A DNA stretch of 64,000 bases. It comes from Eledone cirrhosa (taxonomy: Eukaryota). Where the stretch lies: assembly GCA_964016885.1 (NCBI GenBank), contig OZ024740.1:299894001-299958000 (forward strand), written 5' to 3'. The notes under the pieces are model-generated. The model had not been told where the DNA came from, ran no database searches, and saw only the letters and a list, made by a program, of their open reading frames with translations. A program made the translations under genes and the position numbers. Positions 637 through 64,000 of the stretch are shown one piece after another. Each line of letters opens with the position of its first letter. The first letter of the stretch is position 1.

Positions 637-890
637 ACGATAAATTAACGGAGGCATAGGCCGTCGTTATTCCCTGTAAATAATGTGCTCAAAGGGGAAG
701 AGATCCTGAGCCCTTTAAAATATAATATGTTGAGAAGGTAACACACCAGAGAGAGATATATAGTGCGTTATCAATAATACAGGGAAAAAACCACCAGTGT
801 ATGGAATCTATAACCTATGAAAGGCAGACTATAGACACGATAATTAAAAATATAAATTAAAGCGTAAATAAATACCTTTATAACTATATA

Positions 891-969
891 ACACACGTAC
901 AAATCCAAAGATATGTTTCACCAGAAAATTTGTTGAAAGAAATGGTAGTCTCGGTTCATCAGCGTGTGT
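891..969 (-). ncRNA. Type I hammerhead ribozyme
   Basis: Minus strand: ACACACG-CUGAUGA-ACCGAGA..UCUGGU-GAAA-CAUAUC UUUG GAUUU-GUA-CGUGUGU. Stem I is 7 bp; stem III has one mismatch. Confidence 0.9.
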
Positions 970-1429
970 AAGGCTATACATTTCAGACAACACTAAGAGA
1001 ATTTTACAATTGACTGTCCAGCTACACGTGGGAGAGAGAAGTCACAGCGTGTTTAAGGGCAGTTAACCAGTGGCCTCTGAGAGACGAACTGCTAGAAAGG
1101 GCAGCCCAAAGCCACTCAGAGAAGAGTGCTCAACCAAACAGAGATAGGAAAGACTGTTGTTAGGAGCGAAATATCACGATAAATTAACGGAGGCATAGGC
1201 CGTCGTTATTCCCTGTAAATAATGTGCTCAAAGGGGAAGAGATCCTGAGCCCTTTAAAATATAATATGTTGAGAAGGTAACACACCAGAGAGAGATATAT
1301 AGTGCGTTATCAATAATACAGGGAAAAAACCACCAGTGTATGGAATCTATAACCTATGAAAGACAGACTATAGACACGATAATTAAAAATATAAATTAAA
1401 GCGTAAATAAATACCTTTATAACTATATA

Positions 1430-1508
1430 ACACACGTACACATCCAAAGATATGTTTCACCAGAAAATTTGTTGAAAGAAATGGTAGTCTCGGTTCATCA
1501 GCGTGTGT
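1430..1508 (-). ncRNA. Type I hammerhead ribozyme
   Basis: Same as 891-969 but stem III is fully paired (ACAUAUC/GAUGUGU, UUUG loop); GUA cleavage triplet. Confidence 0.93.
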
Positions 1509-1756
1509 AAGGCTATACATTTCAGACAACACTAAGAGAATTTTACAATTGACTGTCCAGCTACACGTGGGAGAGAGAAGTCACAGCGTGTTTAAGGGCA
1601 GTTAACCAGTGGCCTCTGAGAGACGAACTGCTAGAAAGGGCAGCCCAAAACCACTCAGAGAAGAGTGCTCAACCAAACAGAGTTGGGAAAGACTGTTGTT
1701 AGGAGCGAAATATCACGATAAATTAACGGAGGCATAGGCCGTCATTTATATATATA

Positions 1757-1942
1757 GGAACATTTTTGACCCCGACGGCAGAGCTCAAGCCGTTTCGACG
1801 GTTTCCGGCAATAGTCGTCGAAACGACTTGAGCTCTGCCGTCGGGGTCAAACATTTTCCTATTACCCACTTTACTACCCTAAGTATTGAGCACTCTGGTG
1901 CGTTATGGTCCATCTGGTTCCTTATCACTCTTCCTTCGTTTT
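1757..1942 (+). mobile_element. Short fold-back insertion of the 3' end of a PLE pLTR (family A)
   Basis: Inverted gaccccgacggcagagctcaagccgtttcgac arms plus a tail; homologous to the ends of the PLE at 35752-38325; flanked by TA. Confidence 0.8.
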
Positions 1943-2163
1943 ATATATATATATATATATAATATATAAGATCAAAAGATGGTTAAAGGAATTCCATGTA
2001 TTTTATTATGCGCATTTCAAAAACAAACATCATCATGCAATAATATTTGCGTTTTCATCAGATAAAACAGGAGGACATGATATGAAGGCTAAAAAACACT
2101 TGTGGATAGTGCAGTTTTAAATCAACATATGAAAAGTAATTTTAGATTGATGTGTGATATTGG

Positions 2164-60002: not shown

Positions 60003-60038
60003 CTTTTGAAAAGCAGAAGAACTGCGAAACCGGTAAAG
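60003..60038 (+). ncRNA. Minimal hammerhead with U3-A8 core, after a long hairpin (59940-59991)
   Basis: CUU-UUGAAAA-GCAG AAGAA CUGC-GAAA-CCG-GUA-AGG, then AAUAAA and TA. Stem I is only 3 bp. Confidence 0.62.
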
Positions 60039-60637
60039 GAACCAAATAAATATATATATTTAAAAAAAAATAAGACTCCAGTTGCATTTTCGATTTCATC
60101 TTTTTTTATTTATATATATATATATATATATATATATATATATATATTCAATTATTTATTTATTTATAGATGTATGTATGTATGTATGTATATGATTTGT
60201 GGACAGGTCTTTCACAGGCTTTCAGGACTCAAAGACCATTTGGGCTCACGTGCTAGGTAGAAACATACTTATTGCAAGAAGTGGTAATCCGTACATCACG
60301 TTGTCTATTCTTTCGGAAGAGAAATCGACAGAGATTTAGGTAACAAACTCGAATCCATCGTAATATTTCTCTCTCTACATATCTTTAACCATTGTAGCTG
60401 TGGCTACATACATTTTTAGCACACGCTATGCTTTGTTATTATCATTATCGGTATGATTTGTATTCAGCATTTAATTTACTGTATTATTCCATCTACCTGT
60501 TCATATTCAGGGTACTAGTTATCATATATTTTCTTCTGGATTCCCTCAACCTAATAAAAACAATTACATTGCTACCAACGATACAACAGGAGTCACAACC
60601 ATACGCAGAACATCAATAAGATTAACAACCCAACAGT

Positions 60638-60855
60638 GGAAGAAGAAGAAGAAGAAGAAGAAGAAGAAGAAGAAGAAGAAGAAGAAGAAGAAGAAGAAGA
60701 AGAAGAAGAAGAAGAAGAAGAAGAAGAAGAAGAAGAAGAAGAAGAAGAAGAAGAAGAAGAAGAAGAAGAAGAAGAAGAAGAAGAAGAAGAAGAAGAAGAA
60801 GAAGAAGAAGAAGAAGAAGACGACGACGACGACGACGACGACGACGACGACGACG
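60638..60855. repeat. Long (GAA)n (~60 units) followed by (GAC)n
   Basis: Direct reading; source of the poly-E/D and poly-S ORFs. Confidence 0.97.
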
Positions 60856-62840
60856 GTGACAATGACGAATTAGTAGAGTAAAGTAAAAATAAGAAGAAGC
60901 AGGGGTAAGAGGAGTACGAAACAGTATATATTAATACTAATAGAAACACATTTTAGAAATTTATAACCGAATAGAATATTTATGATAATAACAAAAGCAA
61001 TTTTTCATTCTATATAGAAATTTCTTTGTGTGTGAAGTTTGTCTATGACAATAAAATAATCTATTTCCTGACTCACAGCAGAATGATAAAATGCCGTAAG
61101 CACAATCAAAATTGAAAAAAAAATTACATCACACATAAATAAACATTGCTTGTAAAGTAAATAAACGTGCCGATCAGATGGTGAATTCTATTGTCTCGTT
61201 GAAATACATGAAATGTATAAAGACCATCGGATTTTCATTTAAGCACACGTTCTTATTCATACATACCCAATATATAATATAGATCAATATGGTATATACA
61301 TTACCCGCTCTCTTCTCTCTGACTACTACTTTCTCTAAACGCCCCATACAAATGAGTATATGTGTATATATCTATAAGTTTATTTCACACTCAAAATCTA
61401 TCTCCCACCCCCCTCTCTCTCTCTCACTCTCTCTCTCCCTCTCTCTCTCTCTATTTTCCCTCTCTCTCTCTCTATATATATATATGTATATATATATATA
61501 TTATATATATATATATTTATATATTTATATATATATGTATATATATATATATGTATATATATATATATATATATATATATATATATATATATATATATGC
61601 ATATACATATGTGTGTATATATATATATATATATATATATATATATATATACGTCATTATATGTATACGTCATTTCACATAACACAATCTTGTATATAAT
61701 GTAAGATATCAAACAGTGTGTTAAATATAACCCTTGAAGATATGACACGTAAATAAATAGTTAAATAGTATGTATGTATGTATTGTATGTATGAATATAC
61801 GCATACATGTTTCTCTCGCTTTCTCTCTCTCCCTTTATATATATATATATATATATATATATATATATATATATATATATATATATATATATATATATAT
61901 ATATATATATATATATATATATATATATATATATATATATATATATATATATATATATATATATATATATATATATATATATATATATTTGTCTGTTTGT
62001 GAGTAAGTGAATGTGTGCTGAGTGCGGGCGTACATATGTGAGTAGGTGATTGTCTTTGTTTCTGTGCCTGAAGTTTCGTCAAACTATGCCTGTGTGCGTA
62101 AATTGTAAAAAAATATAGATAGGTGTATTGACATTTAGAAATGCTACAACCAGTCAGAAAATGGAGAATCAGGGAAGTTTTAGTAGTAGATATATCATAC
62201 ATATTACAATGTATTACTGGGCCAATTTCCTGCTTGATGTTTTTGTTTTTAATAAACGACATGTATAACCAATATCTATCTCCTACACTTCTTCCTTTTC
62301 CATCAATGAGATTTTCACGTTTTTCCATTGCTATTATATTCACTAGAATATCAGGAATCTCAGCCAAACTATTGTGGCTTAATATAATTTCGATACTATT
62401 TTCACGGCACCCATCTATATTCGACATTGTTTATTTTAATTTTTGTTTTGTACATTGTATTTGGCAACAATGTCATTTCATTTCTGTCACTCTCTCTCAT
62501 ACGCTCTCTCTCACGCACTTTCTCATTTTCTCATTCTTCCTCTCCTTCTCTTATTCCCTCCCACTATCTCGCATTACCTCTATATTTCATGTACATATAC
62601 ACGTATATGTGTATGTATGTGTATATATATACAGACACACACACACACATATATATATAGATATATATACATATATATATGCTGTATATATATATATATA
62701 TATGCTGTATATATATATATATATATATATATATATATATATATATATATATATATATATATATATACGTATATATATATATATATATATATATATATAT
62801 ATATATATATATATATATATATATATGTATATATATATAT

Positions 62841-62915
62841 GGTTATACTTTGGGAGGGTCATGTTGCCAATAAGAAACAAACGCACCAGTTGATTTGACT
62901 TCAATTTATTATAAT
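62841..62915 (-). mobile_element. Family B terminal fragment
   Basis: gttatactttgggagggtcatgttgccaataagaaac, as at 7272. Confidence 0.85.
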
Positions 62916-63620
62916 ATATTCTTACCCATACGAAGTCGTCCTCTGGCTAGCTGGATTCGAACTTTGATAATACGAAAATACGAATTTCATTGGTCAATGA
63001 ATGAGTAAGGAAACGACTGAAGCTATGTACGTTCTATTTAAGATGGTGTTTATCTTATCAAATAAAAATGAAATACATTTAAAAGAATTCAATCTTTACG
63101 AATTTTTTTCTATCTCTGCTGTCGGCAGATCAATTTTCTTTACAATTCAATTTTTGGAAATCGTTTGGATTTTATGAACGGATTTCATATGTTTCTCATT
63201 TCTTCATCCATATTTTGTTATTGCTTGACTGGCTACGTTTCTTTATATTTCTTTGTTGGAAGATCCCTACAGGTATCTATGGATTACTTGTTGCATCATC
63301 TTTCATGATGTTTACAAAGACTTTTCACTTAATATGCGTAGGTTTTAATTTAATGCAACCATTTGCAAAGTTTGAAAAAACAGTCTTTATTGAACATAAC
63401 ATACCAAGTGATCGGCTCATATATATATATATATATAAGAGAGTATTGAAGTTTGCTTGAAGCATTGTGAAATAATAAATAAATATCTTTAAGTCGTTTG
63501 GAAGCCTCGACAATGCAAATATAAATATAAATATATAAATATAAATATAAATATATATATATATATATATATATATATATATATATATATATATATATAT
63601 ATATATATATATATATATAT

Positions 63621-64000
63621 AGGAACCAGTAAGACCCCGACGGCTGAGCTCAAGCCGTTTCGACGGCTAATTCTGGACCGCATGGTGCGGGTGAAATGAA
63701 TTGAGCTGAGCGGAAAAGTCTGGATACGGCGTGGTAGGGTCGGAAAGTGCTCTACTACGGGAGTAGGAGCTAGATAACGAAGGAAATGTGGTAAGGAACC
63801 AGGTGGACCTAACGCACCAAAGTACTCAATACTTGGGGTAGTAGAGTGGGTAATAGGAACCAGTAAGACCCCGACGGCTGAGCTCAAGCCGTTTCGACGG
63901 CTAATTCTGGTCGGGGTCTTACTGGTTCCTATTACCCACTCTACTACCCCAAGTATTGAGTACTTTGGTGCGTTATGGTCCACCTGGTTCCTTACCACAT
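63621..64000. mobile_element. Family A insertion: 234-bp partial tandem plus inversion at ~63910
   Basis: aggaaccagtaagaccccgacggc at 63621 and 63855; inverted arm from ~63910 to the window end. Confidence 0.85.

Follow-up and report, generated by a model that had tools for sequence, protein, structure and literature searches.

Two-armed hammerhead arrays in (TA)n tracts of Eledone cirrhosa and their likeness to the ends of Penelope-like elements

The window considered here, a 64-kb stretch of Eledone cirrhosa DNA taken as a whole, holds type I hammerhead ribozyme (HHR) motifs together with relics of Penelope-like elements (PLEs), several of them lying in (TA)n tracts. LINE remnants are also common in it. 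The features are as follows ("past the cut" means downstream of the HHR cut site).

1..260 (+): broken PLE reverse transcriptase (RT) remnant with an MG..AP motif, seen in translation and ended by the window edge
637..1744 (-): 539-bp non-coding HHR unit, 2.06 turns in a single arm, long end in (TA)n; HHRs at 891-969 and 1430-1508, with a 7-bp helix III that is mismatched in the first
1747..1961 (no strand given): tiny two-armed stump of a Hydra-type PLE, keeping only the 3' half of the HHR; similar stumps at 7870-8093, 33763-33889 and 63619-64000
1962..2069 (-): 2069 family, HHR at 1999-2069; the short end, 45 nt past the cut, is in (TA)n
7271..7825 (no strand given): palindromic stump of a 1,329-codon PLE, reaching 156 and 220 nt past the cut; HHRs at 7423-7465 (-) and 7567-7609 (+)
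35518..35696 (no strand given): palindromic stump in (TA)n, degenerate HHR at about 35621-35662, by inspection
35755..38324 (+): broken two-armed Hydra-type PLE, inverted arm 35755-36355, RT and GIY-YIG remnants at 36286-37500; ends 16 nt (short) and 97 nt (long) past the cut
38359..40487 (-): long arm of the 310-bp retrozyme array, 6.87 turns, 7 HHRs; outer end 165 nt past the cut, adjoining (TA)n 38325-38360
40485..41558 (+): short arm of the same array, 3.46 turns, 3 HHRs (40772-40814, 41082-41124, 41392-41434); outer end 130 nt past the cut, adjoining (TA)n
44451..46660 (+): 2031-bp non-coding unit plus about 180 bp, 1.09 turns; near-intact HHR at 46409-46466, long end about 198 nt past the cut
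46672..49905 (-): broken, frameshifted copy of the 900-codon type of PLE, 3119 bp (one turn) plus 115 bp; RT relic at 47222-49874; its minimal HHR (46787-46819) is damaged
49997..50047 (-): degenerate HHR of a further family, from a variant-core scan
50679..50783 (+): HHR at 50679-50733; its short end lies in (TA)n, 55 nt past the cut
59743..59942 (+): second stump of the 7267 family, HHR dead (U16.1 changed)
60003..60038 (+): HHR with a U3-A8 core and a palindromic helix III; the motif recurs as an inverted pair in locus L155
62819-62915: third end fragment of the 7267 family

A strict descriptor scan returned 17 type I HHR matches, against a mean of 0.09 and a maximum of 2 in 200 block-wise dinucleotide shuffles. 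Ten belong to the 310-bp unit, two to the 539-bp unit and two to the 7267-7825 palindrome, and one each lies at 1999-2069, 50679-50733 and 21448-21548. The last of these has weak stems, falls within a LINE ORF and was dropped as a chance match. The near-intact motif at 46409-46466 and the U3-A8 motif at 60003-60038 were added by inspection or variant-core scans, and the Hydra-type PLE carries two further U3-A8 HHRs (cores at 35937 (-) and 38223 (+); 0 matches in 15 shuffles). With variant cores allowed, the count is 20 intact or near-intact HHRs in 8 families; copies at 59796-59838, about 35621-35662, 46787-46819 and 49997-50047 are dead or degenerate. A preliminary description of this DNA had announced about 20 such HHRs, and this stands, as does its number of at least eight families, although these are not all unrelated in build. 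Its window-wide system needs correction: the interval 8.1-35.5 kb has only the chance match, and 10 of the 20 motifs sit in a single insertion, the 310-bp array. With 79 HHRs per Mb in 33 other stretches of the genome, the density of the window is ordinary for this genome.

The Rfam covariance models returned 129 matches at E up to 5, none of them to an HHR family; the variants present here fall outside those models. Among 103 distinct motifs, G10.1-C11.1 occurs in 22, U.U in 26 and A-U in 23, and folding of single motifs was clearly better than that of shuffles for only 1 of 8. On their sequence, the HHRs of the window are real predicted type I motifs. Their predominant location in (TA)n was confirmed: at 11 of the 12 sites tested (TA)n next occurs 14-260 nt past the cut, the exception being the inner unit of the 539 dimer.

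What had been described as one tandem of about ten 310-bp units is in fact a pair of arms on opposite strands, meeting at a 3-nt microhomology. This long/short geometry, absent from the preliminary description, is the most telling feature of the window. The 310-bp family occupies at least 1,059 dispersed loci, counted genome-wide as long-end/TA junctions, with 4,033 exact matches to its HHR. A sample of 71 loci, all on contig C1 and drawn from more than 1,000, contained 57 clean two-arm arrays; of the remaining 14, six end at a sequence edge or N gap, five are single-armed and three are complex. All 57 pair a long with a short outer end (163-170 and 118-139 nt past the cut, i.e. about 165 and 130), never long/long or short/short, whether the loci were picked by their HHR (10/10) or by their long end (47/47). 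Both flanks are (TA)n, in which a target-site duplication would not stand out, and TA-like flanks were found on both sides of all 65 uncut loci under a loose criterion.

The inner parts of the arrays vary: each sampled locus has its own inversion point and arm lengths between the same two outer ends. Inner ends fall inside a unit, are uniform around it (KS p 0.15) and lie within 10 nt of the cut in only 5 of 114 arms; those of the long arm come within 25 nt of the short start in 11 of 57 loci, with no clustering there. The two inner ends are mostly joined with 0-6 nt of overlap or a few extra bases. Most arms (99/114) exceed one turn, the longest reaching 24.8, so copying passes the HHR cut site for many turns and the template must have been circular or multimeric, as had been supposed.

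The 310-bp unit folds well as a circle (z -3.9) and has a longest Met-ORF of 30 aa, a GC content of 0.35 and an ATATAT of its own at the near (short) start site. Its HHR has a U.U mismatch at 10.1-11.1, and helix III probably needs a dimer. The family is very young. A 316-bp sister retrozyme is 64% identical to it, with the start-site patch almost unchanged; its HHR stems differ and are fully paired, and its cores are C3-G8 or U3-A8. That the fold is kept despite changed stems and cores indicates selection on it.

Two other non-coding units resemble the 310-bp one. The 539-bp unit (34 exact HHR matches genome-wide, longest Met-ORF 45 aa, GC 0.39, circle fold z -4.4) is, like the 310-bp unit, tandem, non-coding and devoid of an LTR pair, with one type I HHR per unit, as retrozymes are; both also agree with retrozymes in unit size (some 50-1000 bp, two or more units in a row) and in a GC content below 45-50%. 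The 2031 family (5,181 HHR matches, units of 2-3.1 kb) has at most about two HHRs in tandem in the 7 loci sampled, and its 1.09 turns in the window fall short of the two full tandem copies expected of a retrozyme; it works like one, larger than those described. Long/short pairing was found in 4 of 5 loci of the 539 family and 7 of 11 of the 2031 family, where two of the pairs are short/short, one of them joining two separate insertions. Elsewhere it holds in 2/2 (7267), 4/5 (GATTC), 4/4 (2069) and 2/3 (50679) cases, and the ACTAGT family (6 rows) showed no clear long/short pattern.

The same geometry marks intact PLEs of this genome. The 900-codon PLE at locus L101 is a single ORF with Pfam RVT_1 at 436-631 and GIY-YIG at 808-886; intact copies are 98.6-99.9% alike, and all nine two-arm loci pair long with short ends, with a 40-nt tail. 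The family shows partial tandems, an inverted arm, a tail at one end and an HHR in the pLTR; at the PLE loci L110 and L114 each arm has sequence missing from the other. Its linker cysteines are spaced CX4CX7C, as against the CX2-5CxxC expected for the Neptune/Nematis clade. The window copy at 46672-49905 is 79% identical, and its HHR is degenerate, as previously described, only there: the U4C variant of this minimal HHR is exact at 2,179 places genome-wide. The 7267 family forms the end of a PLE whose open frame counts 1,329 codons and whose unit measures 4,423 bp, with a CX4CxxC linker. In 35755-38324, judged on sequence, the Hydra-clade features listed in the available text of PMC8557442 are found: a CxCX5C linker, a single Cys in the GIY-YIG core, DKT (in the relative L212), absence of CCHH, a (TA)n location and an HHR. 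The 2069 family may also be the end of a Hydra-type PLE, a GIY-YIG match lying upstream in 1 of 8 copies.

All three RT relics reported in the preliminary description (1-260, 36286-37500, 47222-49874) were recovered, and its carrier sizes other than the 310-bp tandem hold. Its continuum of non-coding parasites does not extend to all families: at least three HHR families are ends of protein-coding PLEs, 7267, 35755-38324 and 46672-49905 being PLEs or PLE ends, and only the 310-, 539- and 2031-bp families are shown to be non-coding multi-turn units. For these three, which have PLE end geometry in (TA)n, copying by a PLE RT into TA tracts stays the favoured reading. Compared with the three sampled PLE families, the 310, 316, 539 and 2031 units showed no match, either at nucleotide level or in translation.

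Unit haplotypes inform on the template. In 36 of 43 310-bp loci the commonest haplotype is common to both arms (0.11 by chance), and at L184 a three-base switch reads X, X, Y in both arms when counted from the outer end, i.e. mirrored. Since haplotypes are shared and this switch is mirrored, one multi-unit RNA is the likely source of both arms, and we consider it likely that they derive from one RNA or one source. There are 26 distinct locus-wide haplotypes in 56 loci. L163, L190, L196 and L056 carry variants fixed in all 16-22 units of both arms and private among the 71 loci sampled, on a single contig, from more than 1,000; such loci point to putative single-unit (circle) bottlenecks, and we lean towards circles taking part in copying. 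Arm differences at L064 and L056 are not mirrored, and repeated variants at irregular spacing (L169, L055, L056) fit DNA-level amplification or mixed templates.

The non-coding units share the (TA)n location, two arms and two fixed ends with intact PLEs, which makes a PLE enzyme the likely copier; that the 310, 539 and 2031 units are copied in trans by a PLE-type enzyme is very probable on this comparison. Such an RT-endonuclease would likely nick both strands of the (TA)n target and initiate two cDNAs, one per fixed site, downstream of the HHR. Probably as a dimer, it would bind the conserved RNA patch 125-195 nt past the cut, one subunit starting at the far site and the other at the near site, where the unit's own ATATAT could pair with the nicked target. 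The template, one circular or multi-unit RNA, would be shared by both subunits, each of which would leave it at a random point, and host end joining would link the two cDNA ends into a back-to-back array. HHR cleavage and ligation would yield monomer circles, which now and then might rebuild long uniform arrays from a single unit; uncut multimers would likewise serve as templates.

In the available text of PMC11167929, purified PLE cuts and extends both target strands and starts RT at two adjacent internal sites, the interval being the tail, called unique to PLEs; the protein is predicted to be a dimer. The long and short ends of the 310-bp arrays match this two-start tail. The start site was the same on both strands in vitro, so the strict long/short pairing is not predicted by that work. 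HHR cleavage was dispensable for insertion there, and only one of nine Xenopus retrozymes cleaved in vitro (10.64898/2026.07.22.740005, in the text available). Taken whole (PLE in trans, two start sites, one circular or multi-unit RNA, end joining, HHR circles), the proposal seems to us probable. Its boldest form is tentative, with the odds somewhat against it: two-start integration would be obligatory for a dimeric Penelope RT-endonuclease, each subunit extending one nicked strand of the symmetric (TA)n from its own fixed site on the same RNA, going round circles made by the ribozyme, or along multimers, for as many as 25 turns, and every insertion would be palindromic, with a tail on one arm and none on the other; hammerhead RNAs of viroid size would exploit this through a short conserved binding patch and interchangeable ribozymes, PLEs and parasites together having left some 100,000-400,000 hammerheads in the genome.

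Circles could be dispensed with if the same PLE enzyme copied only uncut linear multimers, the HHR being a silent passenger and uniform arrays expanding at the DNA level after a short insertion. L184, L064 and L056 need a heterogeneous multi-unit template, arm ends are not at the cut, L169 has its irregular repeated variants, and the available text of PMC11167929 reports, beside dispensable cleavage, no Anolis RNA-seq ends at the cut site. Conservation of the HHR fold between the 310 and 316 units speaks against a passenger, however, and 26 haplotypes in 56 young loci, with private variants fixed over both inverted arms, are not easily obtained by within-arm DNA exchange; we regard this reading as rather unlikely. 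Fold-back self-priming on the cDNA of the first arm, or an antisense template (PMC3846280, in part), could replace the second start on RNA, and would suit the near-identity of the arms, the L184 mirror and the near-palindromic centres of short window stumps (7267, 35518, 63786). The short arm, however, reaches further upstream than the long one in 24 of 57 loci, palindromic centres are no commoner than chance (3 observed, 5.7 expected), and each arm at L110 and L114 has what the other lacks; fold-back is already contradicted for the non-nested loci and is improbable in general.

Satellites born from PLE ends might also have spread by DNA recombination or rolling-circle DNA copying, with PLE-like ends merely inherited. 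Local amplification by unequal crossover is discussed by Li et al. (10.64898/2026.07.22.740005, in the text available) and would suit repeated variants in long arms, but 1,059 dispersed junctions, with a separate inversion point and arm lengths at each sampled locus and constant outer ends, make this very improbable. We give equally little credence to mobilisation by a microsatellite-targeting LINE RT: LINE remnants abound in the window and no sequence links the units to a sampled PLE, but the units have neither poly(A) nor a fixed RNA 3' end, and two fixed internal ends with an inversion fit the intact PLEs here and the signature in the available text of PMC11167929 and PMC8557442.

On the preferred reading, copying by a PLE enzyme in trans, the 310-bp family is a natural readout on the enzyme that moves retrozymes and on the origin of inverted PLE ends tailed on one side. 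It bears the PLE-specific two-start signature without coding, its long/short rule can be counted and its variants inform on the template. The family points to a minimal RNA of 310 nt with a conserved patch and two start sites (+130 and +165), and the same genome has intact candidate enzymes, so that trans-mobilisation and the dimer model become directly testable at the bench. Genome writing, too, has an interest in a compact RNA signal by which a target-primed RT is led to produce long tandem arrays.

In L1 twin priming, a single RNA is primed twice, and the inverted arm that results is attached through microhomology. Here, in contrast, both starts are fixed internal sites, and the arms have content in common and extend over many turns.

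The general idea of retrozymes as PLE parasites is known, having been put forward as a hypothesis in PMC4209133 and PMC7229834, with a kinship result for vertebrates in 10.64898/2026.07.22.740005 (all as far as their available text goes). Animal non-LTR retrozymes in the latter two likewise consist of low-GC, non-coding tandem repeats that fold well as circles, every unit measuring a few hundred bp and bearing a single type I HHR, and they have PLEs alongside, named as likely mobilisers. Support for that role in the parts available consists of co-occurrence and pLTR kinship, and two-arm inversion, fixed ends or (TA)n are not described there. Units here, by contrast, include carriers of up to 2-3 kb, have no pLTR kin found and often show U.U or A-U at 10.1-11.1; for those retrozymes, expression, cleavage and circles have been demonstrated, whereas ours are known from DNA.

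Minimal HHRs of PLE pLTRs (PMC4209133, in the text available) share a palindromic or tiny helix III, an extra base before helix II, the U3-A8 core, opposite-strand pairs 100-700 bp apart and dispersed stumps, and circles as templates for more-than-unit copying were already proposed there. G10.1-C11.1, highly conserved in that work, is in the minority here (22/103), the U4C core marks one young PLE family, and our density of about 79 per Mb rests on different descriptors and is not strictly comparable. Chlamys elements such as MRC1 (PMC8557442, in part) are likewise non-coding PLE dependants with multicopy head-to-tail insertions; their 3' ends are like those of autonomous families, and canonical HHRs are absent from their clade, whereas HHRs are present on the units here, for which no sampled PLE gave a match.

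The closest likeness is to EN+ PLEs (PMC11167929, PMC8557442 and PMC3846280, in their available text), with their partial tandems, inverted 5'-truncated arm, one-end extension, AT-rich or (TA)n targets, HHR upstream of two RT start sites and pLTR cis-sequences able to act in trans. Tails here are 35 to about 145 nt depending on the family, against 30-40 nt there. The two-armed long/short (TA)n insertion geometry of retrozymes was not found in the literature searched, as far as its available text goes; long/short pairing is counted here, strict in two families, with a mirror register at one locus, and the signature stands on non-coding units.

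The type I hammerhead ribozyme (HHR) descriptor matched 17 times in the 64-kb window, against a mean of 0.09 in 200 shuffles. After removal of a chance-like match at 21448 and inclusion of a near-intact motif (46409) and three variants with a U3-A8 core (60003, 35937 and 38223), the tally amounts to 20 predicted motifs in 8 families, with 4 further dead or degenerate, bearing out the preliminary description, which had proposed about 20 motifs in at least 8 families. The carrier sizes and the three Penelope-like element (PLE) reverse transcriptase (RT) relics it listed were also confirmed. 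A single insertion accounts for 10 of the 20 motifs. The match at 21448-21548 was attributed to chance, its stems being weak and its location within a LINE ORF, and the cores at 24474, 29182, 43788, 55994 and others were discarded for lack of stems. An Rfam scan of the window returned no HHR matches, only microsatellite and hairpin noise.

Elsewhere in the genome, 33 ten-kb stretches were sampled at round coordinates from 15 contigs. They contain 26 strict HHR matches in 329.8 kb, or 79 per Mb (bootstrap 33-136; 0.2 matches in shuffles), and 5 variant-core matches versus 0.15 in shuffles. The window is thus of ordinary density and was rejected as an HHR hotspot. With an assembly size of 3.0 Gb, the whole genome would hold roughly 100,000-400,000 predicted motifs; reported numbers, obtained with other descriptors, are as high as 120,000 for axolotl, about 5,000 for mussel (PMC7229834) and about 9,000 for Xenopus tropicalis (PMC4209133). 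A (TA)6 run lies within 300 bp of 24 of the 26 sampled matches; for randomly chosen positions within these stretches the share is 55%. In this small sample, the four largest contigs (C1-C4) gave 20 strict matches over 18 stretches and the remaining contigs 6 over 15. By sequence-pattern matching, families named by unit size or window position occur genome-wide 4,033 (310), 3,760 (316-bp sister of 310), 34 (539), 5,181 (2031) and 4,898 (7267) times, the exact minimal HHR of a 900-codon PLE 2,179 times, and an HHR family absent from the window 17,952 times.

Three of the carriers are non-coding units present in more than one turn, of 310, 539 and 2031 bp, with longest Met-ORFs of 30, 45 and 69 aa, respectively. 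Others belong to autonomous elements. The element at 46672-49905 is a broken copy of a young family that has intact 900-codon RT and GIY-YIG frames in 3.13-kb tandem units, copies being 98.6-99.9% alike; its minimal HHR (window 46787-46819, L100-L114) carries a U4C core change, its start codon lies within its 40-nt tail, and a homolog search with the protein returned 87 PLE-like proteins, most of them unnamed. In the element at 35755-38324, of which many tiny stumps occur in the window, the linker is of the Hydra-clade type CxCX5C, and a Neptune-like label was dropped for that reason. The palindrome at 7267-7825 is what remains, as a stump, of a third PLE, whose unit measures 4,423 bp and has a 1,329-codon frame. 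Three such tandem units with intact frames occur at C1:63062000-63077000 (L209-L210); the long asparagine/histidine-rich insert in the N-terminal part of these frames resembles the N-rich inserts described for rotifer PLEs (PMC3846280). The GATTC family is probably the end of a Hydra-type PLE (1 of 31 copies linked). The 2069 family, with 1 linked copy among 8, may likewise represent a PLE end; a PLE link was found in none of 8 copies of the 50679 family and none of 17 of the 60003 family. The size continuum of non-coding parasites envisaged earlier thus combines true parasites with autonomous elements' truncated ends. Insertions are nested in each other's terminal TA tracts, as seen for the 310 array and the Hydra-type PLE (38325-38360) and for the 2031 unit and the 900-codon PLE (46661-46674). 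Each insertion splits a tract and thereby leaves two targets in place of one, which may feed back on the abundance of TA.

Further repeats of the window are as follows.

42373-42945, 50215-50483, 41691-41981, 44032-44088 and 59940-59991: elements of palindromic or inverted structure, several of them in (TA)n, in which no HHR was found; likely stumps of other PLE-type families
2163-2602 (218 bp x2) and 2742-3077 (111 bp x3): tandem repeats, young, rich in AT and purines and without HHR, beside a TA tract; both may belong to a single PLE-type untranslated region, minus strand
3450-4265: remnant resembling the C-terminus of a hAT-type transposase; a Pfam search of this interval gave nothing significant
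10985-11120: (AGA)29 running straight into (CTT)16; the two form a perfect inverted pair of trinucleotide repeats that closes an RTE-like repeat on its 3' side, with related ends at 21911 and 55340
14190-16666: three tandem LINE 3' fragments, 87-90% alike, with a zf-RVT-like region, each with an (AAT)n-type tail
16951-21852: degenerate APE-type LINE (Exo_endo_phos, zf-RVT)
about 19250-19780: second LINE fragment, inserted within the preceding LINE
5817-6000, 8108-8290, 24685-25008, 51405-51486 and 56347-56529: dispersed SINE-like repeat, about 180 bp long and present in at least 6 copies

The 310 array of the window consists of two arms placed back to back, with both outer ends in (TA)n. Counted from the predicted GUA cut, the minus arm (6.87 turns) ends at +165 and the plus arm (3.46 turns) at +130. 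Predicted GUA sites lie at window positions 40808 (+) for the 310 unit and 1437 (-) for the 539 unit. The end farther from the predicted cut is here called long, the nearer one short, and the interval between them the tail. The long-end junction occurs 1,059 times in the genome. A total of 71 loci were traced, every one on C1: the window itself, the leading 10 of the HHR listing, and 60 out of the leading 64 of the long-end listing, whose other four had already entered through the HHR listing. Of these, 57 are clean two-arm loci, all pairing a long with a short end. Long ends fall at +165 in 52 of the 57 (range 163-170) and short ends at 118-139, +130 and +139 being alternative readings of one ATATAT inside the unit, which blends into the target. 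The other 14 loci are cut by a fetch edge or N gap (6), single-armed (5) or complex (3). Inner ends are evenly distributed round the unit (KS p 0.15) and show no clustering at the cut (5 of 114 lie within 10 nt of it); more than one turn is present in 99 of the 114 arms, insertions have a median of 7.6 turns, and arm junctions show a 0-6 nt overlap in 34 of the 57 loci and extra bases in the others. A hairpin-read assembly artefact was rejected, as arm lengths differ, two distinct end phases are fixed, and old, diverged families behave alike.

The same pairing is found in the intact 900-codon PLE, where all nine resolved two-arm loci, among 11 fetched and selected for paired RT matches, combine a long and a short end 40 nt apart. 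Long/short pairs were also recovered in the 539 (4/5), 7267 (2/2), GATTC (4/5), 2069 (4/4), 50679 (2/3) and 2031 (7/11) families. Tails, measured to the first TA run and accurate within a few nt, are family-specific (35, 40, about 62, 70, 80, 82, 90, 97 and 145 nt). A tandem HHR family with a period of about 490 bp and helix III ACTAGT (L048, L026, L050, L068, L080) has ends that do not resolve into long and short, a clear pattern being absent in 6 rows. As described in PMC11167929, a purified PLE, predicted to be a dimer, cleaves and extends both strands of AT-rich DNA, and its RT starts at two adjacent internal sites downstream of the HHR, the interval corresponding to the genomic tail and being termed 'unique to PLEs'. 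PLEs are also reported to have an inverted arm, as well as a tail of 30-40 bp that is often confined to one end (PMC8557442, PMC3846280). The non-coding arrays thus bear the PLE integration signature, made anew at each site.

The commonest unit haplotype is common to both arms in 36 of 43 loci of the 310 family, versus 0.11 between loci, and therefore both arms probably derive from one RNA or one source. That the second arm is a fold-back copy of the first is unlikely, given that the short arm extends further upstream in 24 of 57 loci, that palindromic centres number 3 versus 5.7 expected by chance, and that in PLE loci L110 and L114 each arm has sequence lacking from the other. The L184 locus shows the order X, X, Y from the outer end in both arms, with a three-base switch, as would be expected if both starts had fallen within one and the same unit of a single multi-unit RNA; in L064 and L056 variants are common to the arms but shifted relative to each other, as though different units had been used for the two starts. 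These three loci argue for a multimeric template. Multimers alone are argued against by the 26 locus-wide haplotypes among 56 loci, and by variants found nowhere else in the sample that, at four loci, are fixed in both arms across every one of the 16-22 units. This calls for passage through a single unit and regrowth, for which rolling-circle copying of a circular monomer would be the simplest route. L169, L055 and L056 contain variants repeated at irregular intervals, indicating that amplification at the DNA level or mixed templates play a part as well.

The 316-bp sister is 64% identical to 310, with a nearly unchanged stretch 125-195 nt past the cut. Upstream of this patch, 22 HHR versions were found; among them are stems that differ entirely yet remain paired, and cores of the C3-G8 as well as the U3-A8 type. 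The predicted ribozyme fold appears to be under selection, because the patch is kept while stems and cores change but stay paired. Interchangeable HHRs and the conserved start-site patch characterize a group of sister loci (L197-L208, L126, L193, L211, L219); the sister was rejected as an autonomous partner of 310, being another retrozyme. In the 310 HHR the 10.1-11.1 pair is U.U and helix III is a three-pair palindrome; among 103 distinct motifs from all loci this pair is U.U in 26, A-U in 23 and G-C in 22. One of nine Xenopus retrozymes is reported to cleave in vitro (10.64898/2026.07.22.740005), and HHR cleavage is described as dispensable for PLE insertion in vitro (PMC11167929).

As to a partner, the 310, 316, 539 and 2031 units matched none of the 900-codon, 1,329-codon and Hydra-type PLEs. 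A 14-nt likeness of 310 to the terminal repeat (pLTR) of the 900-codon PLE was discounted owing to differing distances from the start sites, and the GATTC family was not accepted as kin of 310, helix II letters being common to both HHRs but flanks and end positions differing. The 310 unit is present in contigs of four sequencing runs of unrecorded kind, as one closed 310-nt unit in three and as hundreds of variants in the fourth; no template conclusion was drawn, because tandem DNA, multimers and circles all assemble alike. No RNA run is listed as containing the unit. In runs X1-X6, labelled as four different organisms and of unrecorded kind, 89-100% of its words are present, which relatives, diet or contamination would all fit.

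No description of two-armed, long/short-ended retrozyme arrays or of HHRs in octopus and other cephalopods was found in the full texts searched, mostly open-access; supplements of 10.64898/2026.07.22.740005 may hold such loci, and the repeat-annotation text of PMC13282606, on the octopus/cephalopod group, leaves ribozymes unmentioned. The countable integration signature bears on two open questions, namely which enzyme moves animal retrozymes and how PLE insertions acquire inverted, one-side-tailed ends. PLE minimal HHRs and circle-templated, more-than-unit copying have already been proposed (PMC4209133), animal retrozymes with their circRNAs, and with PLEs as likely mobilisers, have been described (PMC7229834, PMC7761336), and a PLE origin of retrozymes has been argued from co-occurrence and pLTR trees in vertebrates and four invertebrates (10.64898/2026.07.22.740005). 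The Eledone cirrhosa system is real, very abundant and of this already known kind.
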